Assembly (NCBI GenBank): GCA_902795265.1
Contig: CADBKM010000001.1
Span: 28,456 to 92,455 of the forward strand
Direction of reading: 5' to 3'
Source of the DNA: an uncultured Eubacteriales bacterium
Lineage (GTDB): Bacteria; Bacillota; Clostridia; Peptostreptococcales; Anaerovoracaceae
DNA length: 64,000 nt
The position numbers and the translations under genes were made by a program. Position 1 is the stretch's first letter; each line of letters opens with the position of its first letter. Shown one piece after another: positions 19,707 through 51,615 of this stretch. The notes beneath the pieces are model-generated. The model made no database searches. It saw only the letters and a list, made by a program, of their open reading frames with translations, and was not told the DNA's origin.

Positions 19707-19730
19707 CGATTGCTTTTTATAAACAAATCG
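19707..19730. promoter_or_regulatory. 24-nt AT-rich inverted repeat, candidate ModE-like operator (copy 1)
   Basis: CGATTGCTTTTTATAAACAAATCG. 23/24 identical to 21205-21228. Ends 13 nt before the regulator ATG. Confidence 0.55.
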
Positions 19731-19742
19731 GGAGGCGGAAGT

Positions 19743-20114
19743 ATGAGTGACTTAGCTATTCATCCGGATATCAAACTGACCTTTGCAGCGAAGAAGAGGT
19801 TCTTCGGGCCGGGTACAGTTATGCTTCTGAAGGAGATAGAAATAACCGGAAATGTAAGGGAGGCATGCGCAAACTGCGGTTTTTCCTATAGTAAAGGCTG
19901 GACGATAATCAGGAAAAGTGAACAGGTACTCGGGTATAAGATCGTTGAAAGACAGGTTGGAGGCCAGTCGGGAGGCTCCGCAAAAGTAACCGGAAACGGC
20001 AAAGCTCTCATGAAAGCTTATGAAGAGCTATATGACGAACTCAATGGGATCGCTGTTTCAAGGTTTAAAGAACTCAATGAAAAATACAGGCTTTTAGAGG
20101 AATGTGATAGCTGA
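19743..20114 (+). CDS. ModE N-terminal-domain-like winged-helix regulator (no Mop domains)
   Basis: Matches the ModE DNA-binding domain pattern (GFSYSKGW...IVERQVGGQSGGSAKVTGNG). ATG at 19743 follows GGGAGGCGG. The track start at 19710 runs through the operator repeat. Confidence 0.75.
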   Translation: MSDLAIHPDIKLTFAAKKRFFGPGTVMLLKEIEITGNVREACANCGFSYSKGWTIIRKSEQVLGYKIVERQVGGQSGGSAKVTGNGKALMKAYEELYDELNGIAVSRFKELNEKYRLLEECDS

Positions 20115-20134
20115 AAAGGGACTGATAGACTGAT

Positions 20135-21157
20135 ATGAAACTGATTAAGACCGAAGAAGCTGTAGGGCAGGTACTCTGTCACGACATAACTCAGATAATT
20201 AAGGACGTAACAAAGGATGCCGTATTCCGCAAGGGACATATCATAACGGAAGAGGACATTCCCGTCTTGCTGTCCGTGGGTAAGGACCACATATATGTCT
20301 GGGAAAACGATGAGAATATGATGCACGAGAATGAAGCTGCTGAAGTTCTCTGTACGATCTGCAAGGGCACCAATCTGACCCGCGGAGAAGTAAAGGAAGG
20401 CAAAATAGAACTGAGAGCTTCCTGCGACGGCGTACTGAAGATCGACAGGGAAAAGCTCAAAGCAGTGAATTCCTTCGGGCAGATGATGATAGCGACGCGC
20501 CATGGAGATTTTCCGGTCAGAAAGGGAGACAAAGTAGCCGGTACACGCATTATACCTCTTGTCATAGAGAAGGAAAAAATGCAGAAAGTACAGGAAATCT
20601 GCGGAGAGCGTCCGATACTTGATGTGATATCTTACGGATCGCGAAAGGCGGGTATCGTCACCACCGGTAATGAAGTTTACTATGGGCGGATCAAAGATAC
20701 ATTTACGCCTGTTATCGTTAAGAAACTTGAGGAGTTCGATGTTCAGACCGCTGCTCATAAGATCACGAATGACGACAGCGCAAATATTGAGAAATGCATC
20801 AGAGAGCTTATTCAGGAAGGCTGCGATCTCATCCTTTGCACAGGCGGAATGAGTGTGGACCCTGATGATAAAACTCCTCTGGCGATTCGCAATGTGTGCG
20901 GGAGCGCTGTGACATACGGAGCACCTGTACTGCCTGGAGCAATGTTCATGCTTGCATATTACGGAGACACAAATATCCCTGTAATGGGGCTCCCGGGATG
21001 TGTGATGTATGCAAAGAGAACGATCTTTGACCTGGTTCTTCCAAGGATCATGACCGGAGAAAAGCTGTGTAAAGAAGACTTCGACAGACTCGGAGAAGGC
21101 GGCCTTTGCCTCAACTGCGATATATGCACATTCCCGAACTGCGGCTTCGGTAAATAA
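20135..21157 (+). CDS. Molybdopterin-binding (MoeA/MoCF-biosynthesis-like) protein with Cys-rich C-terminal tail
   Basis: MoCF_biosynth-like core (GIVTTGNEV...LILCTGGMSVDPDDKTP). C-terminal CLNCDICTFPNC. Confidence 0.6.
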   Translation: MKLIKTEEAVGQVLCHDITQIIKDVTKDAVFRKGHIITEEDIPVLLSVGKDHIYVWENDENMMHENEAAEVLCTICKGTNLTRGEVKEGKIELRASCDGVLKIDREKLKAVNSFGQMMIATRHGDFPVRKGDKVAGTRIIPLVIEKEKMQKVQEICGERPILDVISYGSRKAGIVTTGNEVYYGRIKDTFTPVIVKKLEEFDVQTAAHKITNDDSANIEKCIRELIQEGCDLILCTGGMSVDPDDKTPLAIRNVCGSAVTYGAPVLPGAMFMLAYYGDTNIPVMGLPGCVMYAKRTIFDLVLPRIMTGEKLCKEDFDRLGEGGLCLNCDICTFPNCGFGK

Positions 21158-21204
21158 CCGTGTTTTATCCGCCCTCTCACTGAAGGGGGCTTATAAAAAC
21201 AACA

Positions 21205-21228
21205 CGATTACTTTTTATAAACAAATCG
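21205..21228. promoter_or_regulatory. 24-nt AT-rich inverted repeat, candidate ModE-like operator (copy 2)
   Basis: CGATTACTTTTTATAAACAAATCG, 22 nt upstream of the modA ATG. Confidence 0.55.
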
Positions 21229-21250
21229 ATATGCCGAAAGGAGTGTAATT

Positions 21251-22108
21251 ATGAAAAAGAAACTGATTGCAGCCCTGATCATGCTTACGATGATTTTTGC
21301 ACTTGCTGCATGCGGAGGCGGAGAGGCAGCTCCTGCAGAAGAGGAAACTTCTGAGCAGGTCACTGTAAACGTATTTGCCGCAGCCTCACTCAGCAATGTA
21401 ATGGGTGAATTCGAAGCGTCATATGAAGAAGCAAATCCGGGAGTGGATATTGTGATCAATGCTGACAGCTCGGGAGCGTTGCTTACTCAGATACAGGAAG
21501 GCGCGCCTTGCGATGTGTTCTTCAGCGCTGCCCAGAAGCAGATGGACGAACTCGAGGGAGCCGGCATGGTTGTTGAAGGCACAAGAACAAACGTCGTTAA
21601 CAACCAGCTTGTAGTTGTTACTCAGCCTGACAGCGAAACAGCAGTTACAGGACTGGCAGACATCGCAAAGGCTAAGAGCATAGCTCTCGCTGATGGAAGT
21701 GTTCCTGTAGGCAAATATACAAGGCAGGCAATGATAAATCTCGGTCTTCTCGCTGAGGTTGAGGACCCTGCTGCCATAACCACTCAGGAAGTATCCGATC
21801 AGCTCGGAGGTGTTGAGATCAGTGAGCAGGGCAACGTCAGCAAGGTTCTGGCAGCTGTAGAAGAGGCATCCTGTGAGGTCGGAACTACGTATCTTTCAGA
21901 TACGATCGGTCATGAGGACAGCATAAAGATACTTGAGACTGTAGGCTATGATGTTACAGGAAACATTATCTATCCGGTTGCTCAGATCACAAATCAGGAC
22001 GCTGATGATGCTGAGTCTGCAGCAGCGGCAGATTTTATCGCTTACATAACAAATGATGAAGCAAAGGCTCTGTATCAGCAGTATGGATTTGACACTGATG
22101 TAGAGTAG
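21251..22108 (+). CDS. modA: Molybdate ABC transporter substrate-binding lipoprotein
   Basis: Lipobox LAAC. ModA-like core (VFAAASL...ADSSGAL..QI..GAPCDVFFSA). Confidence 0.8.
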   Translation: MKKKLIAALIMLTMIFALAACGGGEAAPAEEETSEQVTVNVFAAASLSNVMGEFEASYEEANPGVDIVINADSSGALLTQIQEGAPCDVFFSAAQKQMDELEGAGMVVEGTRTNVVNNQLVVVTQPDSETAVTGLADIAKAKSIALADGSVPVGKYTRQAMINLGLLAEVEDPAAITTQEVSDQLGGVEISEQGNVSKVLAAVEEASCEVGTTYLSDTIGHEDSIKILETVGYDVTGNIIYPVAQITNQDADDAESAAAADFIAYITNDEAKALYQQYGFDTDVE

Positions 22109-22116: not shown

Positions 22117-22833
22117 ATGCATAATTCCATGAGTGCTTTCATAGATCTGGCACAAAAACTTGACTGGAGCCCGTTATGGATATCTCTTAAGACCGGGCTT
22201 GTAGCGACGGTAATATCGTTCTTCCTCGGCCTTTGGGCCGCCAGAAAAGTCATAAAGAAGGATGTAAGGGCAAAGTCGGTAATTGACGGCATACTGACTC
22301 TCCCCATGGTGCTTCCGCCGACAGTAGCGGGCTTCTTTCTGCTGCTGATATTCAGCAGACGAAGACCGTTTGGCATATTCCTTAACGACAACTTCAACAT
22401 TCAGGTGGTACACACATGGCTCGGATGCATACTTGCTGCCACGGTGATAGCTTTTCCGCTGATGTACAGGAACGCCAGGGCGGCATTCGAGCAGATAGAC
22501 GCAAATCTCGTTTATGCCGGAAGGACCCTTGGCATGTCTGAGCTTGCCATATTCTGGCGTATTGTGGTGCCGACTGCCGGCCCGGGCATTGCAAGCGGCA
22601 CCATTCTGACCTTTGCGCGTGCAATGGGAGAGTACGGCGCTACGTCGATGCTGGCCGGCAACATTCCGGGCAAAACAGGAACGGTCTCACAGCGCATTGC
22701 CATGGTAATACAGGATGGCGATTATGCTGCAGCTGGGTTCTGGGTAGTTATTGTGCTGCTGATCGCATTTGCTGCAGTGTTCGCGATAAACATGATCACC
22801 GGGAAGCATATGAAGAACGTGAGAAAGTGGTAA
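22117..22833 (+). CDS. modB: Molybdate ABC transporter permease
   Basis: Five to six TM segments and an EAA-like loop (ARTLGMSELAIFWRIVVP). Confidence 0.85.
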   Translation: MHNSMSAFIDLAQKLDWSPLWISLKTGLVATVISFFLGLWAARKVIKKDVRAKSVIDGILTLPMVLPPTVAGFFLLLIFSRRRPFGIFLNDNFNIQVVHTWLGCILAATVIAFPLMYRNARAAFEQIDANLVYAGRTLGMSELAIFWRIVVPTAGPGIASGTILTFARAMGEYGATSMLAGNIPGKTGTVSQRIAMVIQDGDYAAAGFWVVIVLLIAFAAVFAINMITGKHMKNVRKW

Positions 22834-22837: not shown

Positions 22838-23884
22838 ATGAGACTGAGCGCGGATATACACAAAAGAATAGGCAGCTTTGAACTCAACGTTCAGATAAAA
22901 AGTGATGCTTCAAGGATAGGCATTCTTGGCGCGTCCGGAAGCGGCAAGAGCATGACTCTCAGGAGCATTGCAGGTATAGAAGATATCGACTCAGGCCGCA
23001 TCGAAGCCGGTGGAAAGCTGCTCTATGATTCAGCGTCAGGGATCAGCCTCAGACCGCAGAAGCGCAGAGTCGGATATATGTTTCAGAACTACGCACTCTT
23101 TCCGACTATGACCGTGATGCAGAATGTAATGGCAGGCCTGAAGGGAAGCAGAGAAGAAAACCGTGAAAAAGCTTCAGTAATGTTATCTAGATTCGGGCTT
23201 GACAGTTATGAAAGCAGACTTCCGGGAGAACTGTCAGGCGGACAGCAGCAAAGAGTTGCACTGGCGCGTATAATGATAACAGAACCTGAGATCATTCTTC
23301 TCGATGAGCCGTTTTCAGCACTTGACGGATATCTCAGAGACCGCATGCAGATGGAGATGCTCGAGATGCTTGAAGATTATACCGGTCAGGTGGTGATGGT
23401 GTCTCACAGCAGAGATGAGCTGTACAGATTCAGTGAAGAACTCTTCGTGCTCTCAGCCGGCATGATCATTGCGCATGGGAAAACCCGCGAACTGTTCAGA
23501 GATCCGCAGATCGCAGAGGCTGCAAGGCTTACCGGGTGTAAGAATATTTCTGCGGCCAGAGTCATAGACAGCCAGACTGCGGAAGCCGTAGATTGGGGAA
23601 TCAAGTTCCGTGTTTCAAAGGATATCCCGGCCGGTACAAATTATATCGGTTACAGAGCGCATGCCTTTGAACCGGTATGGGGCGGCATGGAAGCCAATTG
23701 CATTAAGACCGATATTGTCAGAGTGGATGATCTGCCTTTTGAAAAGAACTACTACATACGAACGCTGCCGGGGAAAGACCCTCTGTGCTGGTTTGTGCAG
23801 GGTGAAGAACAGGCCGTTGTTCAGGAGAAAGGTATACCTGATTATTTGAGACTGTCTGAAGACAAGATTCTTTTTCTGAAATGA
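22838..23884 (+). CDS. modC: Molybdate ABC transporter ATP-binding protein
   Basis: Walker A GASGSGKS, signature LSGGQQQR, Walker B ILLDEP, plus a C-terminal regulatory extension. Confidence 0.8.
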   Translation: MRLSADIHKRIGSFELNVQIKSDASRIGILGASGSGKSMTLRSIAGIEDIDSGRIEAGGKLLYDSASGISLRPQKRRVGYMFQNYALFPTMTVMQNVMAGLKGSREENREKASVMLSRFGLDSYESRLPGELSGGQQQRVALARIMITEPEIILLDEPFSALDGYLRDRMQMEMLEMLEDYTGQVVMVSHSRDELYRFSEELFVLSAGMIIAHGKTRELFRDPQIAEAARLTGCKNISAARVIDSQTAEAVDWGIKFRVSKDIPAGTNYIGYRAHAFEPVWGGMEANCIKTDIVRVDDLPFEKNYYIRTLPGKDPLCWFVQGEEQAVVQEKGIPDYLRLSEDKILFLK

Positions 23885-24924
23885 AATTCTACGACATAAT
23901 AAAAAAACTGAATACAGACTGTAAAAACCGTATGCTCACAGTATGCGGCGGCAAGTACTCCGGAGAGAAGCTGATCCTTTCATCGGGTGAGCCTGTCTGG
24001 ATGAGCGATGATGCCGGATTTTTTGCCGGAAGGGCTGACGAGGCTGCAAAAGCAGTGGACGGAAGTCTTACTGAGATAGACGGCGTAAAGGTGTTCAGCG
24101 AGTCGTTGGGCAACGAGCCGGAGCTTGTTATATGCGGAGCGGGGCATGTGTCGATGCCGGTCATCACGATCGCAAAGATGACAGGGTTCCGCGTTACAGC
24201 TATAGATGACAGGGAACGGTTTGTAAACGATGCTCTGAGTCATGGTGCTGACAGAGGGCTCTGCATGGGATTCGAAGAAGCGCTGTCGCAGATACCGGGC
24301 AGCCCGGATGCTTACTTCGTTATCGTGACCAGAGGCCATCTGAGCGATTCCGAGTGCCTGCTCAGCATAGTAAAAAAGTCTCATGCTTATATAGGCATGA
24401 TAGGAAGCCGGCGCAAGATCGGAATGGTAAAAGAGCTTCTGACTGAGGCAGGTGTACCTCAGGATGTGATCGATTCAGTGCATATGCCGATCGGTCTGCC
24501 GATAGGGGCAGAAACACCGGAAGAGATCGCTGTCTCCATCATGGCCGAGATAATAGAAGTCAAAAGGAAAAGCAAGAGAAGCACCGGAATACCGGCCGAT
24601 ATCATGGAAGCTCTGACCGCTGAAGGCAGAAGCCCGGCTGTGCTCGCTACAATAATATCGAAGCAGGGCTCATCGCCGAGGGCTGCAGGCACACGCATGC
24701 TTGCAGAAGAGGGCGGACGCATCACCGGTACCATCGGGGGCGGCTGTGCCGAAGCGACGGTCATCAGCTATGCAAGTGAGATCCTCAGAGAAATCAGTGA
24801 TAAAGACATAAAAAACGAGGCCGTAAGCCCCGTTATAATGCATGTCGATATGACAGGTAAAGATATTGCCGAATCCGGCATGATATGCGGCGGAGTCATC
24901 GAAGTGATGCTCGAGGTAGTCTGA
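23881..24924 (+). CDS. XdhC/CoxI-family molybdenum-hydroxylase maturation factor (atypical domain order)
   Basis: Rossmann segment LVICGAGHVSMPV...TAIDDR and the AETPEEIAVSIMAEI motif. A full XdhC_CoxI-like segment (VLATIISKQGSSPR...GTIGGGCAE...ICGGVIEV) lies at the C-terminus. Confidence 0.75.
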   Translation: MKFYDIIKKLNTDCKNRMLTVCGGKYSGEKLILSSGEPVWMSDDAGFFAGRADEAAKAVDGSLTEIDGVKVFSESLGNEPELVICGAGHVSMPVITIAKMTGFRVTAIDDRERFVNDALSHGADRGLCMGFEEALSQIPGSPDAYFVIVTRGHLSDSECLLSIVKKSHAYIGMIGSRRKIGMVKELLTEAGVPQDVIDSVHMPIGLPIGAETPEEIAVSIMAEIIEVKRKSKRSTGIPADIMEALTAEGRSPAVLATIISKQGSSPRAAGTRMLAEEGGRITGTIGGGCAEATVISYASEILREISDKDIKNEAVSPVIMHVDMTGKDIAESGMICGGVIEVMLEVV

Positions 24925-26154
24925 TCACAGGCTGTCTATGTCTTTCACCTCGTCTTCGCTGTCAGCTTCGACGAGAAGCAGATCGCTCTTGTGAGCGGAG
25001 ATTATCTGGCGGCCGCCTGTATCGCCTGACAGCTGCATGAGTTCACCTGTATACCGTGCCGAGAATATTTTGGGATTGCGCATCTTACCTTGCCACGCAA
25101 GGGATACGATGCCGGCAGTCCCTTTTTTGTATGCATCTATAAGCTTCTGTATAGCTGAAGCTGTGATCCCCGGCTGGTCGCAGACACAGAATATGAATGC
25201 ATCAGCGTCGCCGGCAGCTTCTATGCCGAGCTGCATGCTGTGCGAGATACCGAGCTCAGGCTCATCGTTGAAAACGATGTCGAAATCAGGTGCCATAGCT
25301 GCGACTTCTTCATACTGTGTCACTATTATCTTCCTGTATACATCAAGAGAACGGACGACATCGATGACCGGTGCTGCCATCGGGCGGCCGTCATCCATGA
25401 TGTGGAGCAGCTTGTTGCTGCCGAATCTTTTGCTGTTACCGGCAGCCTCGAGTATGACTGCGATACGTGGCTCAGATGATCTGAGCGATCCCCAGGCGCT
25501 CTGTATACCCATGACGGCGAATATCTGCTGCAGCCTGTACGCAGCAGCAAGCCTGTCAAGGTCGTCATCGACCTGATTCAGGAATACGCGGAAATCTCCG
25601 CGGACTCCTTTCTGTCCACCGTCTCGCGAAGAGATGATTCTGTGCAAAAAGTTGACATCTACGGTCTCGCGCTGAAGTCTTTCAGGTATCTCACCGGCTC
25701 TGAACACGACGTCGGCGGTATTGTGTCCGAGCGCTGAAAGCCCGGCTACGCAGACCGTAATGTCTGTACAGTCCGGCACAACAGGTTCCCATTCTGCAGG
25801 CCATTTGAGCGGCATGCGGCGCGAACCGTCAGCTTCGATCAGAACAACGTCTGCTGTCTCGCGTAGCTGTTCTATTACCTCAGGCATCGGAGCTTTGACC
25901 TTGCCTTTGTGATCAGGGTCGTCTTCCGCTGCAAAGATTATGTTTTCGCTGATGCATGCAGCAGGGCGGTGCATATGAGTAGTCGTGGTGACCGCCACCT
26001 TTTTGCCGGCTTCCGCGAGCTCATGCGCCCATGCAAAGATAAGGGAGGTCTTGCCTCCGGCGCCGGTTATGCTGATAACGGCGTGTGCAGGTATGTCGAG
26101 CTGCAGCGCTTCCGTGATAGTGTTCTGTTTTCCTCTGAAGTTCCATAGTTCCAT
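24925..26154 (-). CDS. Fusion protein: YqeC-like selenium-dependent hydroxylase accessory domain plus MocA/YgfJ-like molybdenum cofactor nucleotidyltransferase domain
   Basis: N-terminal P-loop ITGAGGKTS...VAVTTTTHM (YqeC-like). C-terminal IAVILEAAGNSKRFGSNKLL...CVCDQP (MobA/MocA-like). ATG at 26154; a TTG at 26160 is the track start. Confidence 0.7.
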   Translation of the reverse strand: MELWNFRGKQNTITEALQLDIPAHAVISITGAGGKTSLIFAWAHELAEAGKKVAVTTTTHMHRPAACISENIIFAAEDDPDHKGKVKAPMPEVIEQLRETADVVLIEADGSRRMPLKWPAEWEPVVPDCTDITVCVAGLSALGHNTADVVFRAGEIPERLQRETVDVNFLHRIISSRDGGQKGVRGDFRVFLNQVDDDLDRLAAAYRLQQIFAVMGIQSAWGSLRSSEPRIAVILEAAGNSKRFGSNKLLHIMDDGRPMAAPVIDVVRSLDVYRKIIVTQYEEVAAMAPDFDIVFNDEPELGISHSMQLGIEAAGDADAFIFCVCDQPGITASAIQKLIDAYKKGTAGIVSLAWQGKMRNPKIFSARYTGELMQLSGDTGGRQIISAHKSDLLLVEADSEDEVKDIDSL

Positions 26155-26255
26155 AGTCAATATTTTACAATGATATTTTTTTTTAACAATACTAATTTGG
26201 ACCGTGAAGTACTATAATAATCTCATAACCTATAAATAAGTAAGGAGGGCTCAAA

Positions 26256-27692
26256 ATGTTTAAGAACAAAGATAAGCATATTGATGTCAACGTTAAGAAT
26301 GTTTACAGGCTTGAAGGACGAGTTCCTCTGAAGGATGCTATCCCGTTCGGTCTGCAGCACGTTCTGGCGATGTTCGTAGCGAATGTGGCTCCGCTTATTA
26401 TAATCGCTTCGGTTGCGGTATATGACGGACAGCCGTTCTCGGCGGTTGAAACCGCAAGACTTATACAGAACTGCATGCTTATCGCGGGCATTGGTACAAT
26501 GGTGCAGCTCTACCCGATATGGAAGATAGGTTCCGGTCTTCCGATCGTAATGGGTCTGAGCTTTACATTCCTTGCTGCGTGCATGTCAGCAGCGTCTAAG
26601 GACTACGGCATAATGGTCGGAGCTATCATAGTAGGCGGTATCTTCGAGGGCATACTCGGCCTTACAGCGAGGTACTGGAGAAAGATAATCTCGCCTCTGC
26701 TTTCTTCGTGCGTAGTAGTTGCCATCGGACTCAGCATCCTTAATGTCGGTGTATCTTCATTCGCATCATCCGCGAAATACCCGGTAGGTGCCTGGCAGAA
26801 CCTTCTTGTAGCTACACTGACACTTATAGCCGCCCTTGTATTCCATATAAAGATGAAAGGCGTCGGAAAGCAGATGTACGTCCTCTTCGGCCTCATATTC
26901 GGATATATCATCTCGATATTCTTCGGAATGGTAGACTTCGGCACAATGGGCGATACCATCAAAGAGATGGGAGTATTCTCAGTGCCTGAGGTATTTGCGT
27001 TCAAGCCTAAATTCCAGGCCGGAGCTATCGTGTCGTTCTGCCTGGTGTTCATGGTATCGGCCGTTGAAACAATTGGTGATACTACTGCAGCCTGCACCGG
27101 AGGACTGGGCAGAGACATCACCGAAAAAGAGATCTCCGGATCGCTCTGCTGCGACGGATTCTTGTCAGCGGTATCGGGCGGAGTCTTCGGCTGTTCGCCT
27201 ATAACATCGTTCAGCCAGAACGTCGGACTCATCGCAATGACTCATGTAGTAAACCGCTTCTGCATCATGTTCGGAGCTCTCGCCATGATCCTCGGCGGAC
27301 TGTTCCCGCCTATCGGAGCTTTCTTCACAACGCTTCCTGACTGCGTACTCGGAGGATGCACAGTAATCATGTTCGGATCGATCATGATGGCCGGCGTAAA
27401 GATGATGATAGATGCAGGCCTTGATAACAGAAATACTCTTATTGCAGCTACTTCGCTGTGCCTCGGCGTAGGTGTTACGCAGGTCGATGGCTTCTTCGAC
27501 CATCTGCCGGCGATCATAGGCGAAATATTCGCAGGCAACATGGTAGCAGGCGTATTTGTGGTAGGACTTCTGATGGAAATACTGCTTCCTAAAGACCCTG
27601 CCAAGTATGAGGCTATCGTGGAAGACGGTCTTGACGGAATCGCTCTTGACCCTGCACTTCTATATGACAAAAAAGAGGGAAAAGAAGACTAA
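26256..27692 (+). CDS. NCS2/NAT-family nucleobase permease (xanthine/uric acid type)
   Basis: 478 aa polytopic protein. NAT signature region FSQNVGLIAMTH. RBS AAGGAGGG. Confidence 0.85.
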   Translation: MFKNKDKHIDVNVKNVYRLEGRVPLKDAIPFGLQHVLAMFVANVAPLIIIASVAVYDGQPFSAVETARLIQNCMLIAGIGTMVQLYPIWKIGSGLPIVMGLSFTFLAACMSAASKDYGIMVGAIIVGGIFEGILGLTARYWRKIISPLLSSCVVVAIGLSILNVGVSSFASSAKYPVGAWQNLLVATLTLIAALVFHIKMKGVGKQMYVLFGLIFGYIISIFFGMVDFGTMGDTIKEMGVFSVPEVFAFKPKFQAGAIVSFCLVFMVSAVETIGDTTAACTGGLGRDITEKEISGSLCCDGFLSAVSGGVFGCSPITSFSQNVGLIAMTHVVNRFCIMFGALAMILGGLFPPIGAFFTTLPDCVLGGCTVIMFGSIMMAGVKMMIDAGLDNRNTLIAATSLCLGVGVTQVDGFFDHLPAIIGEIFAGNMVAGVFVVGLLMEILLPKDPAKYEAIVEDGLDGIALDPALLYDKKEGKED

Positions 27693-27820: not shown

Positions 27821-27890
27821 CGGTACAATCTTAGCTTTATAATTAGGTTGAGAGATTATTAATATTGTGTTGTTTCTGCGGGGTAGACTG

Positions 27891-28676
27891 ATGAAAAACT
27901 ACTATGACCGGACATGGAAAATAGGCGAACTTGCCAGGATGTTCGACATAAATGTACAGCTCCTCAGGCATTACGACAAAGAGGGTCTTCTTGTGCCGAA
28001 AATAAGAAATCCGGAGAACAACTGGAGGACTTACAAGTACGACCAGATATACCCGCTTGGCATGATACGCTTTCTCAGGACGCTTGACTGCTCCCTTGAT
28101 GATATAGGCAGATTCATGCCTGAACGCAATGCCGAAACGACAGAATCGTATCTGAAGGAGCGCATGGCCATCATGCGTGCCAGATACGAAAAGCTTCTGA
28201 AAAGGGAGGCTGTACTCAATGACAGGTTCGCGCTCATCAAACGTGAGATGAAATACGCTGCGTCCGATCAGATGTTTGTTTATTCTGAAGAGAAGATACA
28301 TTACATCGAGATCGGGGGCATCGAGGACATCTTCGTTGATGAGCTTTTTTATCTGTATCCGACCCTCGTGTTCTACACGGGCGACGAGACGCGCTTCGCC
28401 GTATGGGTCCCTGAAAAGGACCTTTCCGTGTTCGAAGCGTACAATGAGCGTATCAAAGTGATACCTCACGACGAGTATCTGGTTGGATTTCACAAAGGCC
28501 CTCACGAGAAGATACGGGAGACTTTCGCCAGAATGGAGGAATCAGCCCCGGGACTTCTCGAAGAAGGCAGCAGGCTCGATGAAACAAAGATATGCACTGA
28601 CATAATAGACCAGTTCATCGAAGCCGACAGAAGCAATTTTGTTACAAAGGTAATGATAAAAATAATAAGAGAATAA
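27891..28676 (+). CDS. MerR-family transcriptional regulator with C-terminal effector-binding (GyrI-like) domain
   Basis: HTH WKIGELARMFDINVQLLRHYDKEGLL, a coiled-coil linker, and a C-terminal domain of about 150 aa. Confidence 0.8.
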   Translation: MKNYYDRTWKIGELARMFDINVQLLRHYDKEGLLVPKIRNPENNWRTYKYDQIYPLGMIRFLRTLDCSLDDIGRFMPERNAETTESYLKERMAIMRARYEKLLKREAVLNDRFALIKREMKYAASDQMFVYSEEKIHYIEIGGIEDIFVDELFYLYPTLVFYTGDETRFAVWVPEKDLSVFEAYNERIKVIPHDEYLVGFHKGPHEKIRETFARMEESAPGLLEEGSRLDETKICTDIIDQFIEADRSNFVTKVMIKIIRE

Positions 28677-31061: not shown

Positions 31062-31062
31062 T

Positions 31063-32494: not shown

Positions 32495-32521
32495 AAAACG
32501 GGCATAGCAAGGAGAATGATT

Positions 32522-37578: not shown

Positions 37579-37644
37579 CAGAGTTTAGCACCGCTGCGTT
37601 AAACCGCAACGAGGCGAGAGCCGTACTCCCGGGAATGCACTTTT
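37579..37644 (-). repeat. 66-nt repeat copy B (inverted relative to copy A)
   Basis: Its reverse complement is 63/66 identical to 16476-16541. It lies between the ssnA stop and the ygfK RBS. Confidence 0.85.
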
Positions 37645-37679
37645 GATGCAAACCGTAAACGCGGAAGGAGGATAGATAT

Positions 37680-41499: not shown

Positions 41500-41958
41500 A
41501 TGGCTAAGAAAAACAAAAAAACAGCATATGTCCGCTGCCGCGGAGGCAGCATAAGCTGCACGTACGGCTGCCTCGGATGCGGTCTGTGCGTCGAGGCCTG
41601 CCGCCTCGGTGCGATCAGCATCGGAGACAATGGGGCAGCGGTAGTAGACAGTGGGAAATGCGTCGGGTGCGGATTGTGTGCCGGCGCCTGCCCTCAGAGC
41701 ATAATCGACATTATAGATGCGGGTTTCAACATACAGCCTGCATGCAGCAATAAAGATGCCGGTAAAGCTGCGAGAGAGGCGTGCGTGAATTCCTGCATCG
41801 CCTGCAGGCTGTGTGAGAAAAACTGCCCTGCGGATGCAGTTCATGTGGTCGATAACAGGGCTGTGATCGATCCTGAAAAATGCATTTGCTGTGGCATGTG
41901 CGCGATCAAATGCCCGCGCGGAGTCATACGCGATCTGCACGGGATCATGACAGACTGA
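41500..41958 (+). CDS. Polyferredoxin with four [4Fe-4S]-type motifs (RnfB-C-terminal-like)
   Basis: Motifs CLGCGLCVEAC, CVGCGLCAGACP, CIACRLCEKNCP and CICCGMCAIKCP. ATG at 41500; the track start at 41434 lies inside yqeB. Confidence 0.85.
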   Translation: MAKKNKKTAYVRCRGGSISCTYGCLGCGLCVEACRLGAISIGDNGAAVVDSGKCVGCGLCAGACPQSIIDIIDAGFNIQPACSNKDAGKAAREACVNSCIACRLCEKNCPADAVHVVDNRAVIDPEKCICCGMCAIKCPRGVIRDLHGIMTD

Positions 41959-44898: not shown

Positions 44899-46264
44899 TT
44901 CCGAAGTTTATAAGGGGGATATCCTTATTGACTGCGGGAAGATAGTGGCAATAGGTGCCGATATCGGAATCGAAGATGCTGAAGTCGTCGACGCATCGGG
45001 ATGCTATGTGCTTCCGGGTGCTGTTGATGTGCATACTCACATGGATCTCGATGTGGGTTTCGCGAGAGCTATAGATGACTTCTATGACGGCACTGTCGCT
45101 GCGGCGTGCGGCGGCACGACTACCATAGTCGATCACATGGCATTCGGGCCAAAGGACTGCAGTCTGTGGCATCAGGTAAACGAATATCACAGGCTGGCTG
45201 ACGGCAACGCCGTAGTGGACTACGGATTCCACGGTGTCATGCAGCACCCGATAACCGGGGACAGGCTGGCAGAGATCTCCGAGATCAAAGAAAAAGAAGG
45301 CATCAGCAGCTTCAAGGTTTATATGACGTATGATTACGGGCTCTCAGATGATGAGCTGTTCAATGTTCTGAGGGCCGCTAAAGATGCGGGCATCGTCATA
45401 ACAGTGCATTGTGAAAATCACGGCGTGCTGACTCAGCTGCGCAAGGAGTTTGTTGAGCAGGGCCATGGTGAGGCTAAATATCATCCGCTGAGCAGACCTC
45501 CTAGAGTTGAAGCCGAGGCTGTCAACCGCATGATACACATCGCTGCTCTGGCCGGTGACGCTCCGCTCTACATCGTGCATCTCTCAAGTGCTGAGGGGCT
45601 TCATGAAGTCATGAAGGCGAGGGCTGAAGGGCGCCCTAATCTCGGTGTCGAGACCTGCACACAATACCTTATACTGAATGACAGTCTTTACGATGATCCG
45701 AAGGAAGGGCTTAAGGCCATCATGTCGCCGCCTCTCAGAAAAGACAGCGACAGAGAGGAGCTCTGGAAGGCGCTTGCAGACGGAGGCATTATCGATACAG
45801 TAGCTACAGATCACTGTCCGTTCCACTTCAAGTCAGGAAAGGCCGAGAAGCAGTACGGAAAGGACGATTTCACAAAGTGCCCGAACGGAGCGCCCGGAGT
45901 GCAGGAGAGACTGATGCTCCTGTTCTCGGAAGGTTTCATGAAAGGGCGCCTGAGCCTGCCTCAGGTAGTTAAATACGCCTGCAGCGAGCCGTGCCGCATG
46001 TTCGGTATGTATCCGCAGAAGGGAAGCCTCGAGCCGGGGACCGATGCGGATATCGTGATCATCGATCCGGAAAAGAAAACAGTTATAGATAAAGATTACA
46101 TACGCGGTGCTTCGGACTATTCGTGCTATGAAGGAATGGAACTCGACGGACACATTGAGAAGGTATTCCTGCGCGGTGATGAGATAGTCAGCGACGGAAA
46201 ATTCCTCGGAAAACGCGGAGACGGAAAGTATCTGAAAAGAGCTGCGAGCGTGCTCGCAAAATAA
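44864..46264 (+). CDS. hyuA: Dihydropyrimidinase/D-hydantoinase-type cyclic amidohydrolase
   Basis: Metal motif GAVDVHTHMD, a carboxylated-Lys region (SSFKVYMTY) and VHCEN. 466 aa. Overlaps the upstream gene by 35 nt. Confidence 0.8.
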   Translation: MKLIKNGMIATDSEVYKGDILIDCGKIVAIGADIGIEDAEVVDASGCYVLPGAVDVHTHMDLDVGFARAIDDFYDGTVAAACGGTTTIVDHMAFGPKDCSLWHQVNEYHRLADGNAVVDYGFHGVMQHPITGDRLAEISEIKEKEGISSFKVYMTYDYGLSDDELFNVLRAAKDAGIVITVHCENHGVLTQLRKEFVEQGHGEAKYHPLSRPPRVEAEAVNRMIHIAALAGDAPLYIVHLSSAEGLHEVMKARAEGRPNLGVETCTQYLILNDSLYDDPKEGLKAIMSPPLRKDSDREELWKALADGGIIDTVATDHCPFHFKSGKAEKQYGKDDFTKCPNGAPGVQERLMLLFSEGFMKGRLSLPQVVKYACSEPCRMFGMYPQKGSLEPGTDADIVIIDPEKKTVIDKDYIRGASDYSCYEGMELDGHIEKVFLRGDEIVSDGKFLGKRGDGKYLKRAASVLAK

Positions 46265-46393: not shown

Positions 46394-47590
46394 ATGTCGA
46401 AGGCAACAGAACTGGCAGAAAAGCTCGCGAAGCTCAATATCGCGGACATGTATGAAAATGATTTTTTCCTGACATGGGAAAAGACAGACGATGAGATCGA
46501 GGCAGTGTTCACTGTAGCGGATGCTCTCAGAGACCTGAGAGAGCGCAACAAGTCCACAAAGATCTTCGACTCCGGACTCGGAATTTCGATCTTCCGTGAC
46601 AACTCAACACGTACACGTTTCTCATTTGCCAGTGCTTGCAACCTGCTCGGACTCGAGGTGCAGGATCTGGATGAGAAGAAATCACAGATCGCTCATGGCG
46701 AGACAGTTCGCGAAACAGCAACTATGGTCTCGTTCATGGCTGATGTTATCGGCATACGTGATGACATGTACATCGGCAAGGGAAATGCGTACATGCATGA
46801 GTTCATGGACTCCGTTACACAGGCGAACAAGGACGGCGTGCTCGAGCAGAAGCCTACTCTCGTAAACCTGCAGTGCGATATCGACCATCCTACACAGGCA
46901 ATGGCAGACGCACTCCACATTATCCATGAGTTCGGCGGCGTCGAGAACCTCAAGGGAAAGAAGATCGCTATGAGCTGGGCTTACTCCCCATCATACGGCA
47001 AGCCGCTGTCCGTACCACAGGGTATCATCGGACTGCTGACACGTATGGGAATGGATGTAGTTCTCGCTCATCCTGAAGGATATGAAGTAATGAGCGATGT
47101 TGTCGAGGTAGCAAAGAAGAATGCCGCTGAATCCGGTGGTAAGTTCAGCATCACAAACGACATGAAGGAAGCTTTCAAGGACGCTGATGTTGTTTATCCT
47201 AAGAGCTGGGCACCGTTTGCTGCAATGGAAGTCAGAACAGACCTTTATGGAAAGGGCGACTTCGACGGCATCGACAAGCTCGAGAAGGAACTGCTCGCTC
47301 AGAACGCGACACATCAGGACTGGCACGTTGATGACGAGATGATGATGCTCACAAAGAATGGCCTCGATACTCTGTACATGCATCCACTGCCGGCGGACAT
47401 CGAGGGTATATCCTGCGAACACGGCGAAGTTACAGCAAAGGTGTTCGACCACGCACGTGACTCACTGTACAAAGAGGCATCCAACAAGCCTTATATCATC
47501 GCTGCTATGATCTTCCTTGCAAAGGTAAAAGATCCTGTTGCTGCACTTAAGGAACTTGACGGGGAAGCGGGACCTAGAAAAGCATTCTAA
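46394..47590 (+). CDS. ygeW: YgeW-type knotted carbamoyltransferase
   Basis: Strong colinear resemblance to E. coli YgeW as I recall it (FLLTWE, GLGISIFRDNSTRTRFS, KSQIAHGETVRETA, LVNLQCDIDHPTQ, WAYSPSYGKPLSVPQGIIGL, HPLPADI). Confidence 0.9.
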   Translation: MSKATELAEKLAKLNIADMYENDFFLTWEKTDDEIEAVFTVADALRDLRERNKSTKIFDSGLGISIFRDNSTRTRFSFASACNLLGLEVQDLDEKKSQIAHGETVRETATMVSFMADVIGIRDDMYIGKGNAYMHEFMDSVTQANKDGVLEQKPTLVNLQCDIDHPTQAMADALHIIHEFGGVENLKGKKIAMSWAYSPSYGKPLSVPQGIIGLLTRMGMDVVLAHPEGYEVMSDVVEVAKKNAAESGGKFSITNDMKEAFKDADVVYPKSWAPFAAMEVRTDLYGKGDFDGIDKLEKELLAQNATHQDWHVDDEMMMLTKNGLDTLYMHPLPADIEGISCEHGEVTAKVFDHARDSLYKEASNKPYIIAAMIFLAKVKDPVAALKELDGEAGPRKAF

Positions 47591-47674: not shown

Positions 47675-48619
47675 ATGGATAAGAAAAAAATCGTAGTTGC
47701 TCTCGGCGGAAACGCACTGGGCAGCAATCTGGTAGAGCAGATGAGATCCGTCACTGACGCAGTCAAGCCTATCGCTGATCTCATTGAAGAAGGCTATGAA
47801 GTGGTGGTCACTCACGGAAATGGTCCGCAGGTCGGAGTAATTCAGGATGCCATGACACTTCTCTCAAGAGAGAATCCTGAGAAGCATCCGCATTTTCCTC
47901 TGTCGGTATGCACGGCCATGAGCCAGGGCTATATCGGATACGATATCCAGAATAAACTGAGAGAAGAACTCCTCGACAGAGGTATCAAGAAGGATGTTAC
48001 CTGCGTACTTACACAGGTAGAGGTCGATCCTGACGATCCGGCATTCCTGAACCCGACAAAGCCTATCGGACCTTTCCTCACTAAAGAGGAGGCTGAGGCA
48101 AAGAAGAAGCTGAGAAATCACGTCTTTATCGAAGACTCCGGAAGAGGCTACAGAAGAGTTGTCGCCAGCCCGGCGCCGATATCGATCATCGAGATCGATA
48201 CAATCAGAACGCTTGCTGATTCAGGACATATAGTCATCGCAGCAGGCGGAGGCGGCATTCCGGTCACAAAGGCAGAGAATAATCATCTGAAGGGTTCGCC
48301 TGCAGTCATCGACAAGGACCGCGCTTCTGAGCTACTTGCAGAAGAGCTTGATGCAGACTTCCTGATCATCCTCACTGCAGTTGAGAACGCCGCTATAAAC
48401 TTCGGCAAACCTGATGAGAAAAAGCTGGGCGACATCACTGTAGAGGAAGCAAAAAAGTATATCGCAGAAGGTCAGTTCGCTCCGGGCTCGATGCTGCCTA
48501 AAGTAGAGGCTGCAGTCAAGTTTGCTGAGTCGAAGGAAGGGCGTACAGCGCTCATAACGCTGCTCGAGAAGGCCAAAGACGGCATCAACGGAAAGACAGG
48601 CACAAGGATACACGCATAA
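47675..48619 (+). CDS. yqeA: Carbamate kinase
   Basis: N-terminal VVALGGNAL, THGNGPQVG and GGGGIPV motifs. 314 aa. Confidence 0.9.
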   Translation: MDKKKIVVALGGNALGSNLVEQMRSVTDAVKPIADLIEEGYEVVVTHGNGPQVGVIQDAMTLLSRENPEKHPHFPLSVCTAMSQGYIGYDIQNKLREELLDRGIKKDVTCVLTQVEVDPDDPAFLNPTKPIGPFLTKEEAEAKKKLRNHVFIEDSGRGYRRVVASPAPISIIEIDTIRTLADSGHIVIAAGGGGIPVTKAENNHLKGSPAVIDKDRASELLAEELDADFLIILTAVENAAINFGKPDEKKLGDITVEEAKKYIAEGQFAPGSMLPKVEAAVKFAESKEGRTALITLLEKAKDGINGKTGTRIHA

Positions 48620-48658: not shown

Positions 48659-49315
48659 CTATTCTGCTGCCGATCTGATCTCATCAAGGTAGCTGTACAG
48701 TGTGTAGGTCGAGATACCGAAGTACTGGCAGACCTTAGGCCCGGATTTAGTGATGAGAAAGGCGCCGTTGTCATCAAGGAATTTAATGGCGCGGATTTTG
48801 TCATCTTTGCTCATAAGAGTGGTAGGCTTGCCGACGATCCGGACGCTGTGCTCCAGAAGTTCGTCGAGCAGATCTGCTACATTACGCGAGATGGCTTCAG
48901 GCTCAACAGTCTGAATATCAGTTCCGGTGAAGTCGCGAAGGACTTCGTCTACAGCGACCATCATGCTGATATCGTAATTGATGCCCATAAGGCCGATGAC
49001 CTTTCCCTCGTCATCACGTATGTAGAGGGTGGTCGATCTCAGAACTCTTCCGTCGGAAGTCTTTGTGAGATATGATACACGGTCTTCAGGTGCATCAGGG
49101 CCTCCTTTGAGAGACTCCAGCACTATATGTGACGGGCCGTCACCGACGGAACGCCCTGTGACATGGCCGTTCTCAATCGCGATTATTGAATGCTCTGTAT
49201 CCTCGCCGCGGAGGTCGTGGATAACTACTTCACAATTGCGGCCGAACTGGCCGGCGATGCCCTTAGCAACGCGTTTAGCGAATTCAAAGTGTTCGTCAGA
49301 TCTCATGAGATGCAC
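48659..49315 (-). CDS. YheO-like PAS-domain / C-terminal HTH transcriptional regulator
   Basis: 218 aa. N-terminal sensor-like domain (CEVVIHDL...IIAIENGHVTGR) and C-terminal HTH (VCQYFGISTYTLYSYL). Divergent from ygeY. Confidence 0.6.
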   Translation of the reverse strand: MHLMRSDEHFEFAKRVAKGIAGQFGRNCEVVIHDLRGEDTEHSIIAIENGHVTGRSVGDGPSHIVLESLKGGPDAPEDRVSYLTKTSDGRVLRSTTLYIRDDEGKVIGLMGINYDISMMVAVDEVLRDFTGTDIQTVEPEAISRNVADLLDELLEHSVRIVGKPTTLMSKDDKIRAIKFLDDNGAFLITKSGPKVCQYFGISTYTLYSYLDEIRSAAE

Positions 49316-49416
49316 TCACTTTCTAAATTGTGGGATTGTAAATTTGGACCTATTTTAACAACAAAAATATTTTTACACAATAAATTTTTATTATAACCAT
49401 TTTGGGAGGAAGACAA

Positions 49417-50817
49417 ATGACACCTGATTTTGAAGCAATAAAGAAGGCAGCGGAAACGTACGGCCCTGAGATCAGCAGATTTCTGAGAGATATGATCTCG
49501 CATCCAAGTGAGAGTGCCGAAGAGGGCGAAGTCGTAGCATGCATCAAGGCAGAGATGGAAAAACTCGGCTATGACAAGGTAGAAGTCGACGGTCTCGGCA
49601 ACGTTATCGGCTGGATGGGCGACGGAGACAAGATCATCGCCATCGACTCCCACATCGATACAGTAGGTATCGGAAACATCAACAACTGGACAGACGATCC
49701 TTATAAGGGATATGAGACAGACGACATCATCTACGGCCGCGGCGGCTCCGACCAGGAAGGCGGAATGGCATCGGCAGTATACGGCACAAAGATCATGAAG
49801 GATCTGGGCCTCATCCCTGAGGGCTACAAGATCATGGTAGTCGGCTCCGTAATGGAAGAGGACTGCGATGGAATGTGCTGGCAGTACATCGTAAACAAGT
49901 ACTTCAACGGACCTGAAGATGCCAGAAACAAGATCGACTTCGTGATCTCGACAGAGCCTACAGACGGCGGAATCTACAGAGGCCACAGAGGCCGTATGGA
50001 GATCAGAGTCGATGTCAAGGGCGTTTCCTGCCACGGATCCGCTCCTGAGAGAGGTGACAATGCAATCTACAAGATGGCAGACATCATCAACGACGTAAGA
50101 GCCCTCAACAACAATGACTGCACTGAGAGCACTTCGATCCGCGGACTGGCAAAGATGCTCGATCCTAAGTTCAATCCTGACCACTACGAAGACGCAAGAT
50201 TCCTCGGACGCGGCACATGCACAGTATCGCAGATATTCTACACATCGCCAAGCCGCTGCGCAGTAGCAGACTCGTGCGCAATTTCGATCGACAGAAGAAT
50301 GACAGCCGGCGAGACATGGGACAGCTGCCTCGAAGAGGTAAGACAGCTGCCAAGCGTAAAGAAGTACGGTGATGACGTAAAGGTTTCGATGTACATGTAT
50401 GACAGACCGTCATGGACAGGCGAAGTATACGAGACAGAGTGCTACTTCCCGACATGGATCAACAAGGAGAACTCGGCTCACGTAAAGGCTCTCGTAGAGG
50501 CACACAAGGCACTCTTCGGTGAAAAGAGAATTGGTTCGCCAAGCGCAATGCATCTCAGAGACGGCAGACCGCTCTGCGACAAGTGGACATTCTCGACAAA
50601 CGGAGTATCCATCCAGGGACGTTATGGAATCCCATGCGTAGGATTCGGACCTGGAGCTGAGAGCCAGGCACACGCACCAAACGAGATCACATGGAAGCAG
50701 GACCTCGTTACATGCGCAGCACTCTACGCTGCAGCAATTCCGATGTATCCTGATCAGGAGAAGACTGACGACGTAAGCCAGTTCCGTCAGGGCACAACAA
50801 ACAACGACATCAAATAA
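49417..50817 (+). CDS. ygeY: YgeY-family (selenium-metabolism-linked) M20 hydrolase
   Basis: Colinear with E. coli YgeY as I recall it ([96 protein letters not shown]). ATG at 49417 follows GGGAGGAAG. Confidence 0.9.
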
Positions 50818-50826
50818 AAGTGATCA

Positions 50827-50875
50827 AAAAGACTTTTGCCGGAACAAAAAACATTTCGGCAAAAGTCTTTTAAGT
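50827..50875 (+). terminator. Rho-independent terminator after ygeY
   Basis: 15-bp stem AAAAGACTTTTGCCG / CGGCAAAAGTCTTTT followed by a T tract. Confidence 0.8.
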
Positions 50876-50927
50876 TATTGAAGTTTCCAGAACTAGTAAT
50901 ACTGATTCTGACATATAACAAATGAGT

Positions 50928-50964
50928 CCCCGCATCCGCAAAGGGTGCGGGGCTTTTGTTGTTT
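50928..50964 (+). terminator. Second, orphan GC-rich terminator-like hairpin
   Basis: CCCCGCA-tccgcaaaggg-TGCGGGG followed by CTTTTGTTGTTT. No annotated gene lies between it and the previous terminator. Confidence 0.55.
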
Positions 50965-51039
50965 AACGGCATGGTTTGTGTTATTCTCATTATGTATGGG
51001 CAAACTGTATAAAACATATAAAAGGGAGAAATATAACCG

Positions 51040-51615
51040 ATGAAAAGAATGGAAGAAATGATACTGAAAGAGGGAAAGATACTGCCGGGCGGAGTGCTCA
51101 AAGTGGGAAGTTTCCTCAATCAGCAGGTAGACATACACTTCATGAAAGAGATCGGAGATGAAGTAGCACGTCTGTATAAAGACTCCGGTGCTACCAAGAT
51201 ACTCACGATCGAGTCATCGGGTATTCCTATCGCTATCTCTGCAGGCTTCGCAATGGGGCTGCCTGTGGTATACGCAAAGAAGAATAAGTCCTCAAATGTT
51301 TCGGGTGATGTTTATTCCACACCTGTCAAGTCGTTTACACACGGCAATACGAACAACGTAGTAGTCACCAAAGAGTATCTGTCCGCTGATGATAAGATCC
51401 TCATTGTCGATGACTTCCTCGCTCATGGAAGTGCACTGACAGGGCTCATCGATATCGTCAATCAGGCAGGGGCTGAAGTCGTAGGCTGCGTTGCGGCTAT
51501 CGAGAAGGGCTTCCAGATGGGCGGAGACAGGCTCAGAGCCGAAGGCTACAGGATCGAGTCGCTTGCTATCGTTGATGAGATGACAGATGACGGCATCACT
51601 TTCCGTGAACAGTAA
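51040..51615 (+). CDS. xpt: Xanthine phosphoribosyltransferase
   Basis: Xpt-like N-terminus (ILKEGKILPGGVLKVGSFLNQQVD) and PRPP motif ILIVDDFLAHGSA. Confidence 0.85.
   Translation: MKRMEEMILKEGKILPGGVLKVGSFLNQQVDIHFMKEIGDEVARLYKDSGATKILTIESSGIPIAISAGFAMGLPVVYAKKNKSSNVSGDVYSTPVKSFTHGNTNNVVVTKEYLSADDKILIVDDFLAHGSALTGLIDIVNQAGAEVVGCVAAIEKGFQMGGDRLRAEGYRIESLAIVDEMTDDGITFREQ

Follow-up and report, generated by a model that had tools for sequence, protein, structure and literature searches.

The reductive purine pathway and the window

The anaerobic reductive breakdown of urate was reconstituted in 2025 by Li et al. (bioRxiv 10.1101/2025.05.19.654654; Life Metab, PMC12507026) and Liu et al. (bioRxiv 10.1101/2025.04.24.650524), and the reconstituted route leads from urate via 2,8-dioxopurine and later intermediates to 2,3-diaminopropionate and pyruvate (PMC12507026; bioRxiv 10.1101/2025.04.24.650524). 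Urate is converted to 2,8-dioxopurine by XdhD-YgfM with NADH in Escherichia coli and by XdhAC, or 2,8-dioxopurine dehydrogenase (DOPDH), in Clostridium sporogenes, the latter enzyme not being NAD(P)H-linked. YgfK then reduces 2,8-dioxopurine, SsnA opens the ring and HyuA yields 2,3-diureidopropionate, after which YgeW and carbamate kinase (YqeA) deliver ATP, YgeY produces 2,3-diaminopropionate and YgeX converts this to pyruvate. Selenium, molybdenum and SelD are required for the pathway, and YqeB and YqeC mark the trait (see also PMC2276186, PMC11448449). Here we analyse a 64-kb stretch of contig CADBKM010000001.1 (the window), from a ruminant-gut Clostridia genome of a clade of gut metagenome-assembled genomes (MAGs) labelled Anaerovoracaceae/"Mogibacterium". 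It very probably carries a self-contained version of this known reductive (2,8-dioxopurine) purine and urate pathway, together with uptake and cofactor supply.

The long open reading frames (ORFs) of the + strand and three minus-strand ORFs were scanned against NCBIfam and Pfam, membership being called from bit scores relative to the curated NCBIfam cut-offs, and the E. coli K-12 locus was compared with the window by reciprocal BLAST. Relatives were gathered by scanning a genome collection with SsnA, which gave 80 ssnA loci, and by tblastn of all window proteins and E. coli YgeX; a second sample of 80 loci came from a metagenome scan centred on PALP490, an enzyme encoded upstream of the cluster and described below. 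All results are sequence inference, and the view is that of the 64-kb window, not the whole genome. The first-pass annotation had reported homologues of the E. coli ygeW-xdhD gene set between 19707 and 51615, and the scans found the listed genes at about those positions, nearly all on the + strand; the models for YqeB, YqeC, YgeY, YgeW, SsnA, YgfK and XdhD all scored above cut-off, most by wide margins. It is confirmed that this gene set lies far beyond chance. The core enzymes and the salvage enzyme at the end of the cluster are the following (here and below, bits against cut-off):

36235-37575, + strand: SsnA, ring-opening amidohydrolase (NF005540, 659 against 444; TIGR03314, 572 against 455.5)
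37680-40673, + strand: YgfK, 2,8-dioxopurine reductase (DOPOR) (TIGR03315, 1302 against 835; Fer4_20 and Pyr_redox_2)
44864-46264, + strand: HyuA, D-hydantoinase (TIGR02033, 534 against 393; 48% identical to E. coli HyuA)
46394-47590, + strand: YgeW, carbamoyltransferase (TIGR03316, 752 against 500; 64% to E. coli YgeW)
47675-48619, + strand: carbamate kinase, YqeA (TIGR00746, 384 against 358; 61% to E. coli YqeA)
49417-50817, + strand: YgeY, M20 ureido-hydrolase (TIGR03526, 602 against 321.5; 58% to E. coli YgeY)
51040-51615, + strand: Xpt, xanthine phosphoribosyltransferase, salvage (NF006671, 239 against 177)

Every step through diaminopropionate has an above-cut-off homologue, at least one candidate urate reductase included. 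Identities to the E. coli K-12 proteins in reciprocal BLAST span 31-64% overall (SsnA 31%, YgfK 43%), and ssnA and ygfK are adjacent at 36235-40673. The pathway is assigned because all core enzymes have above-cut-off equivalogs at these identities, because XdhD retains a diagnostic loop with E606 and the route has been reconstituted by others, and because gene order is conserved in 13-15 related MAG species, where it is kept at 80-97% identity, with the upstream transporter and adenine deaminase block also syntenic in relatives. The closest SsnA relatives (93-97% identity) come from Anaerovoracaceae/'Mogibacterium sp.' MAGs of sheep, goat and cattle rumen and of horse gut. The classical clostridial formiminoglycine pathway was considered and rejected: the scanned window ORFs gave no NCBIfam or Pfam match to glycine reductase or formate-tetrahydrofolate ligase, and the full SsnA/YgfK/YgeW/YgeY set also disfavours it.

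On the proposed route, purines would enter through an NCS2 permease and a Bmp-type ATP-binding cassette (ABC) transporter, adenine deaminase would form hypoxanthine, and XdhABC would oxidise hypoxanthine and xanthine to urate. Urate would be 6-dehydroxylated to 2,8-dioxopurine, for which there are two candidate enzymes, XdhD-YgfM, drawing on NAD(P)H via flavin adenine dinucleotide (FAD), and an FAD-less enzyme of the XdhAC type, supplied via an adjacent polyferredoxin. The ring would then be reduced by YgfK and opened by SsnA, and the hydantoin opened by HyuA to 2,3-diureidopropionate; YgeW would move one carbamoyl group to phosphate, carbamate kinase would yield ATP, and YgeY would remove the second ureido group to leave 2,3-diaminopropionate. 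Molybdate would be imported by ModABC, and a MoCF-domain protein, an XdhC-family protein, a YqeC-MocA fusion and YqeB would mature a cytidylylated, selenium-bearing molybdenum cofactor. That the same chemistry operates in this organism, and which molybdenum enzyme takes which step, is extrapolated from the E. coli and C. sporogenes orthologues.

The first-pass proposal of a route from purine base via carbamoyl phosphate to ATP, with carbamate kinase conserving the energy, is supported by the above-cut-off homologues and by the 2025 work on orthologues, and its packaging of selenium-dependent molybdenum hydroxylases with molybdenum uptake and maturation likewise matches the orthologue experiments of that year. 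Its statement that several steps were only partly assigned has been overtaken by the reconstitution, in which the intermediate is 2,8-dioxopurine and not xanthine.

An intrinsic-terminator-like hairpin on the + strand (50928-50952; a 10-bp stem, 8 of its pairs GC, and a T-run after it) closes the ygeY unit, and xpt, behind this strong terminator, is predicted to be a separate transcription unit. An insertion of about 48 amino acids (aa) in YgeY was considered as a peculiarity of the locus and rejected, being conserved across clostridial homologues. MAGs labelled Anaerovoracaceae, Lachnospiraceae and Oscillospiraceae (with a few probably mis-binned MAGs) share SsnA at 80-97% identity, against only 31% to the E. 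coli protein, a pattern that hints at unusually strong constraint on SsnA or at its having spread horizontally in gut Clostridia.

Molybdenum hydroxylases and their cofactor supply

Genes for three molybdenum hydroxylases and a polyferredoxin flank the ssnA-ygfK core:

28722-31061, + strand: XdhA (NF043082, 1142 against 780; 43% to E. coli XdhA)
31036-31950, + strand: XdhB (NF043083, 417 against 310)
31943-32494, + strand: XdhC, Fe-S subunit (NF043084, 257 against 217)
32516-33328, + strand: YgfM-like FAD subunit for XdhD (TIGR03312, 111 against 241.5, below cut-off; PF00941 FAD_binding_5; 31% to E. coli YgfM)
33331-36213, + strand: E. coli-type XdhD (TIGR03313, 1214 against 1102; 51% to E. 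coli XdhD)
41500-41958, + strand: polyferredoxin with four CxxCxxCxxxC motifs, directly upstream of the next gene
41977-44898, + strand: fused Fe-S and molybdenum hydroxylase of the 'XdhAC' type, no FAD domain (TIGR03311, 1139 against 830)

XdhABC has separate molybdenum, FAD and 2x[2Fe-2S] subunits, all of which match the E. coli-type equivalogs above cut-off. From its likeness to the E. coli enzyme, we infer that XdhD (33331-36213) is a urate reductase, or 2,8-dioxopurine dehydrogenase. An 11-residue loop with E606 sets XdhD apart from XdhA (Li et al., PMC12507026); the window XdhD keeps this loop of 11 residues and the glutamate (as E607), and sequence comparison found no E606-type loop in the window XdhA or in the TIGR03311 protein. 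The latter, composed of Fer2, Fer2_2, hammerhead and MoCoBD_1/2 domains, is taken as a probable orthologue of clostridial DOPDH because it is 60-75% identical to the sole fused Fe-S and molybdenum hydroxylase (XdhABC aside) that adjoins ssnA-ygfK in other Clostridia, with architecture, length and synteny as the grounds. A linker of about 130 aa in this enzyme was also considered as peculiar to the locus and rejected, since it is conserved across clostridial homologues.

In 25 of the 80 ssnA loci the polyferredoxin gene immediately precedes the TIGR03311 gene. Its product is a candidate electron donor of the adjacent enzyme and, with that, a concrete candidate for the donor on which the clostridial urate reductase draws. 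XdhD and the TIGR03311 enzyme occur together in 14/80 ssnA loci, which make up the clade, and 13 of those 14 also carry XdhABC, whilst clostridial ssnA loci outside the clade show the order ssnA-ygfK-[polyferredoxin]-TIGR03311 enzyme without XdhD. By these gene neighbourhoods, the clade conserves three predicted molybdenum hydroxylases: XdhABC, XdhD-YgfM and a ferredoxin-linked XdhAC type.

Molybdate supply and cofactor maturation are represented as follows:

19710-20114, + strand: ModE N-terminal-domain-like helix-turn-helix protein, 134 aa, no Mop domains (TIGR00637, 66 against 98.5; no Pfam match)
20135-21157, + strand: MoCF_biosynth-domain (molybdopterin-binding) protein (PF00994 at residues 173-305)
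21251-22108, + strand: ModA (120 against 62.5)
22117-22833, + strand: ModB (202 against 183)
22838-23884, + strand: ModC-like ATPase (ModC model, 186 against 285; similar scores on other ABC ATPase models)
23881-24924, + strand: XdhC-family molybdenum-cofactor insertion/maturation factor (PF13478 and PF02625; NF045664, 264 against 350)
24925-26160, minus strand: fusion of YqeC with a MocA/YgfJ-like molybdenum-cofactor cytidylyltransferase (TIGR03172, 161 against 73; TIGR03310, 122 against 186; PF19842 and PF12804)
40692-41483, + strand: YqeB, short form, 263 aa (TIGR03309, 353 against 220; 52% to the C-terminal half of E. coli YqeB)

Both markers of the selenium-cofactor trait, YqeB and YqeC, are above cut-off. 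The first-pass annotation had listed yqeC and ygfJ as two genes; both are present, fused into one minus-strand gene whose YqeC part is 34% identical to E. coli YqeC. Its ModABC call stands for ModA and ModB, with the third component a ModC-like ATPase that scores below cut-off. A proposed ModE-like regulator holds as a sub-threshold match to the N-terminal domain; it does not hold as ModE proper, the full-length model scoring 51 against 369 and the C-terminal di-Mop molybdate-binding domains being absent. The supposed MoeA-like protein is not supported, as PF00994 is its sole domain and the MoeA equivalogs reach only 31-52 bits against cut-offs of 440-536; homologues of this MoCF-domain protein adjoin ModABC or MoaA/MoaC in other purine clusters. 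The XdhC-family ORF aligns at 34% identity with residues 93-254 of E. coli YqeB, in the N-terminal half. Its Pfam domains are permuted, the XdhC_C Rossmann domain (82-224) standing ahead of XdhC_CoxI (249-304).

Several points weigh against the assignment of the locus to the 2,8-dioxopurine pathway. The YgfM-like, MocA-like, ModC-like, ModE-like and XdhC-family ORFs score below their curated cut-offs; these calls, and that of the NCS2 permease, are nonetheless supported by domain content and position. SelD was not found among the scanned window ORFs (NCBIfam/Pfam), the rest of the genome being outside the view. The role of urate reductase is given to XdhD or the TIGR03311 enzyme by analogy, and the latter might equally act as a purine hydroxylase or as another xanthine dehydrogenase beside XdhABC. 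Finally, tblastn with E. coli YgeX found no ygeX orthologue in any of the six frames of the 64-kb window, and this absence leaves the step from diaminopropionate to pyruvate without an assigned enzyme in the window.

A rival reading has some of the enzymes working on N-heterocycles other than urate, with YgfK and HyuA degrading pyrimidines or hydantoins, or the TIGR03311 enzyme hydroxylating nicotinate or purine. In its favour, the three molybdenum hydroxylases exceed what the published pathway needs, HyuA passes the dihydropyrimidinase equivalog, YgfK has a dihydropyrimidine-dehydrogenase-type Fe-S domain and the TIGR03311 model is named 'selenium-dependent xanthine dehydrogenase'. However, orthologues of these families have been shown to act on 2,8-dioxopurine-derived intermediates, the window holds neither nicotinate-fermentation genes nor a beta-ureidopropionase gene, and the genes are tightly co-localised with ssnA, ygeW and ygeY, so that we regard this explanation as very unlikely and retain the reductive purine pathway.

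The YgeX step and an upstream pair of PLP enzymes

The best match of E. coli YgeX in the window (23% identity over 176 aa) is the first of two pyridoxal phosphate (PLP) enzyme genes upstream of the cluster:

8409-9641, + strand: ThrC (threonine-synthase)-like PLP enzyme with an N-terminal Zn ribbon (TIGR00260, 203 against 167; PF00291)
9770-11242, + strand: PALP490, a 490-aa fold-type II PLP enzyme (PF00291 only)

The ThrC-like and PALP490 genes, paired in 30/80 related loci, are candidate accessory genes of the purine cluster. The PALP490 family comprises more than 8000 homologue clusters, not one of which carries a name that denotes a function, and recurs beside ygeY, ygeW, ssnA and ygfK. 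In the PALP490-centred metagenome sample about 25/80 loci were linked to purine clusters, six of those also having ygeX; the other contexts place PALP490 next to SerC, L-serine dehydratase and sugar-isomerase-like genes, many without purine neighbours.

One account of the terminal step keeps to the known pathway, with ygeX elsewhere in the genome and the pair engaged in unrelated amino-acid metabolism as a real threonine synthase and a cysteine-synthase-like enzyme. We hold this to be plausible, though just short of an even chance. The ThrC-like ORF exceeds the thrC cut-off of TIGR00260 and matches threonine synthases of the PDB at E 1e-66, PALP490 homologues occupy many loci without purine genes, ygeX and PALP490 stand together in the six metagenome loci, and some pathway genes of C. 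sporogenes, such as that for carbamate kinase, are likewise unlinked. The distribution of the pair around ssnA argues the other way. Among the ssnA-centred loci with ygeY in range, 21 had ygeX, six the PLP pair (PALP490 at 71-75% and the ThrC-like protein at 61-63% identity), four neither and none both (Fisher p = 3e-4, without correction for phylogeny), and in two loci (L070 and L052) the pair occupies the exact ygeX slot. One of the four loci with neither is a Blautia MAG in which an adenine deaminase-PALP490-ThrC-like operon lies about 15 kb off on the same contig; this operon stands beside MoaA, MoaC and the MoCF-domain gene, and the ssnA neighbourhood is without ygeX.

These counts, the slot position and the Blautia operon speak for a second account, in which the pair would form an unrecognised pathway module for 2,3-diaminopropionate or beta-ureidoalanine that replaces or supplements YgeX, a proposal we put forward tentatively and consider rather unlikely. 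Both proteins are fold-type II PLP enzymes, the superfamily to which YgeX belongs. The AlphaFold model of PALP490 (predicted local distance difference test, pLDDT, 80.7) has its best fold matches in CysK, CBS, beta-cyanoalanine synthase and SbnA; it was rejected by this fold search as a diaminopropionate ammonia-lyase lookalike and resembles beta-replacement enzymes, among them SbnA, which handles the diaminopropionate skeleton. Published neighbourhood analyses would, moreover, lump the pair with YgeX, Li et al. (PMC12507026) having scored YgeX by PF00291 alone. The six loci with both ygeX and the pair and the other conserved contexts of PALP490 count against a module of this kind, as does the lack of any mention of the pair found in the literature, where a search returned nothing relevant on these PLP genes or on purine metabolism in Anaerovoracaceae. 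A strict non-orthologous displacement of YgeX is favoured by the ssnA-centred sample, with its zero co-occurrence, and weakened by those six loci and by the many PALP490 genes without purine neighbours.

A third account has the pathway truncated, with urate serving as electron sink and, through carbamoyl phosphate, as ATP source, and 2,3-diaminopropionate being excreted. Every step through YgeY is encoded in the locus, and a ygeX mutant of C. sporogenes still consumes urate and accumulates diaminopropionate. We nevertheless consider it very unlikely, as it would waste the C3 skeleton and ygeX or the PLP pair stays nearby in most clusters; according to the literature, E. coli does not grow on diaminopropionate.

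A combined proposal, that the PLP pair is an unrecognised module at the YgeX step and that two urate reductases work with different donors, the polyferredoxin being the physiological donor of DOPDH, is speculative and in our view doubtful. The testable lead is that another pair of PLP enzymes is present in clusters lacking ygeX, a difference that annotation pipelines and neighbourhood surveys scoring YgeX by PF00291 would miss.

Two further observations concern the pair. Directly upstream of the ThrC-like gene, 5750-8386 encodes a major facilitator superfamily (MFS) transporter of the lactate/oxalate-formate family and a 459-aa FAD protein (PF21688), whose conservation is confined to L085 and L086, the closest relatives; with spacings of 12 and 22 bp, these genes may share a transcript with the PLP pair. 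In another metagenome locus (L159, contig Ga0116191_1000274) the ThrC-like/PALP490 pair accompanies a distant YgeW-like protein (35%), carbamate kinase (48%), a hydantoinase-like protein (39%) and an ABC transporter, without ssnA or ygfK; this cluster may encode a related route by which some other ureido compound or hydantoin is broken down.

Extent of the block and comparison with known systems

The following genes complete the uptake, upstream and regulatory parts of the locus:

11466-12680, + strand: Bmp/PnrA-family substrate-binding protein of an ABC transporter (PF02608, 96 bits; syntenic in L085-L088)
12786-14354, + strand: ABC ATPase of the Bmp-type transporter
14338-15456 and 15389-16435, + strand: two permeases of the Bmp-type transporter
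16648-18444, + strand: adenine deaminase, adenine to hypoxanthine (TIGR01178, 552 against 472.5)
18448-19578, + strand: M20D amidohydrolase, directly after adenine deaminase (TIGR01891, 249 against 154)
26256-27692, + strand: NCS2 xanthine/urate permease (TIGR03173, 350 against 414, below cut-off; 33% to XanQ, 29% to UacT)
27867-28676, + strand: MerR-family regulator (PF13411), upstream of xdhA in 13 related loci
48659-49306, minus strand: YheO-like regulator (PAS_6 and HTH_22), from gene calls on identical metagenome contigs

The first-pass annotation had begun the cluster at 19707 and ended it at 51615. The genes are there, and the conserved purine block starts further upstream: the order of PLP pair, Bmp transporter, adenine deaminase and M20D gene (8409-19578) is syntenic in the close metagenome relatives L085-L088, and because this whole upstream order is conserved the functional block probably begins at about 8.4-11.5 kb instead of 19.7 kb. 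The Bmp-type ABC transporter, whose genes at 12786-16435 also stand beside ssnA clusters in two other loci (L043 and L053), is a probable purine or nucleoside uptake system. Homologues of the M20D amidohydrolase (58-59% identity) occur inside the ssnA clusters of L023 and L061; this protein could, by analogy with UacY, be a hydrolytic ureido-cleaving alternative.

Missing from the first-pass list were the MerR regulator, the YheO-type regulator, the polyferredoxin and the lack of ygeX in the window. The YheO-like regulator is present in 44/80 ssnA loci, and most clostridial clusters have it beside ssnA, ygeX or PALP490. It probably takes the place that the sigma-54 regulator YgeV has in E. coli, and no description of it was found in the pathway literature. 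In the gap at 48.6-49.4 kb, a + strand ORF of 109 aa was rejected as spurious, the true gene there being that of this minus-strand regulator. Scans for riboswitches and other RNA elements gave nothing credible, either at the Rfam gathering thresholds over the whole window or by E-value over 6.5-52.5 kb.

The genes that lie beyond xpt have no relation to the pathway. Directly after it, 51644-55867 encodes an alpha/beta hydrolase, a 550-aa MurF-like ligase (below the murF cut-off), a D-Ala-D-Ala ligase (Ddl) and a TetR regulator. A hydroxyproline/proline utilisation block follows at 55979-63666, in which a glycyl-radical activase and the trans-4-hydroxy-L-proline dehydratase HypD exceed NCBIfam cut-offs, along with a proline iminopeptidase, a GH127-like protein and L-glutamate gamma-semialdehyde dehydrogenase.

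The pathway bears on host urate homeostasis (gout, chronic kidney disease) and on nitrogen recycling in animal guts; it has by now been described, and cluster variation of this sort has been reported by Li et al. (PMC12507026). What is added here is its predicted presence in a ruminant- and equine-gut Anaerovoracaceae clade, in an unusually self-contained form that unites uptake, three molybdenum hydroxylases, molybdate import and molybdenum/selenium cofactor maturation. The distinctive features are recombined known parts, namely XdhD with XdhAC and XdhABC, the embedded ModABC, the YqeC-MocA fusion and the split YqeB; what interest remains attaches to the PLP pair and to the polyferredoxin, a candidate electron donor of DOPDH.

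Compared with the E. coli K-12 ygeW-xdhD locus, the window has orthologues of xdhABC, ygeW, ygeY, hyuA, yqeA, yqeB, yqeC, mocA, ygfK, ssnA, ygfM and xdhD, with ygfM directly upstream of xdhD and the XdhD loop conserved in both. The E. coli genes ygeX, guaD, ygfS/ygfT and that for the sigma-54 regulator YgeV have no counterpart here, MerR and YheO-type regulators standing in place of the last. In the window the single YqeB of E. coli is represented by two genes, one for a short YqeB and one of the XdhC family, and YqeC is fused to MocA. Additional to the E. coli set are the FAD-less fused molybdenum hydroxylase with its polyferredoxin, the ModE-N/ModABC genes, the MoCF-domain protein, adenine deaminase, the Bmp ABC transporter and xpt.

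The urate cluster of C. sporogenes consists of xdhAC (DOPDH, CLOSPO_02131), ygfK (DOPOR), ssnA, hyuA, ygeW, ygeY, ygeX and pbuX, and shares with the window the XdhAC architecture (Fe-S and molybdenum domains, no FAD), the selenium markers YqeB/YqeC and the ssnA-ygfK-xdhAC core order found in most clostridial loci. The window differs in also having an E. coli-type XdhD-YgfM, in carrying carbamate kinase inside the cluster and in having no ygeX within it. With the selenium-dependent molybdenum hydroxylase trait (Haft & Self 2008, PMC2276186; Johnstone & Self 2024, PMC11448449) it has in common the placement of YqeB/YqeC beside xanthine-dehydrogenase-family enzymes and the co-occurrence of YgeY, YgeW, SsnA and YgfK, whilst the maturation genes are here rearranged by one fusion and one split.

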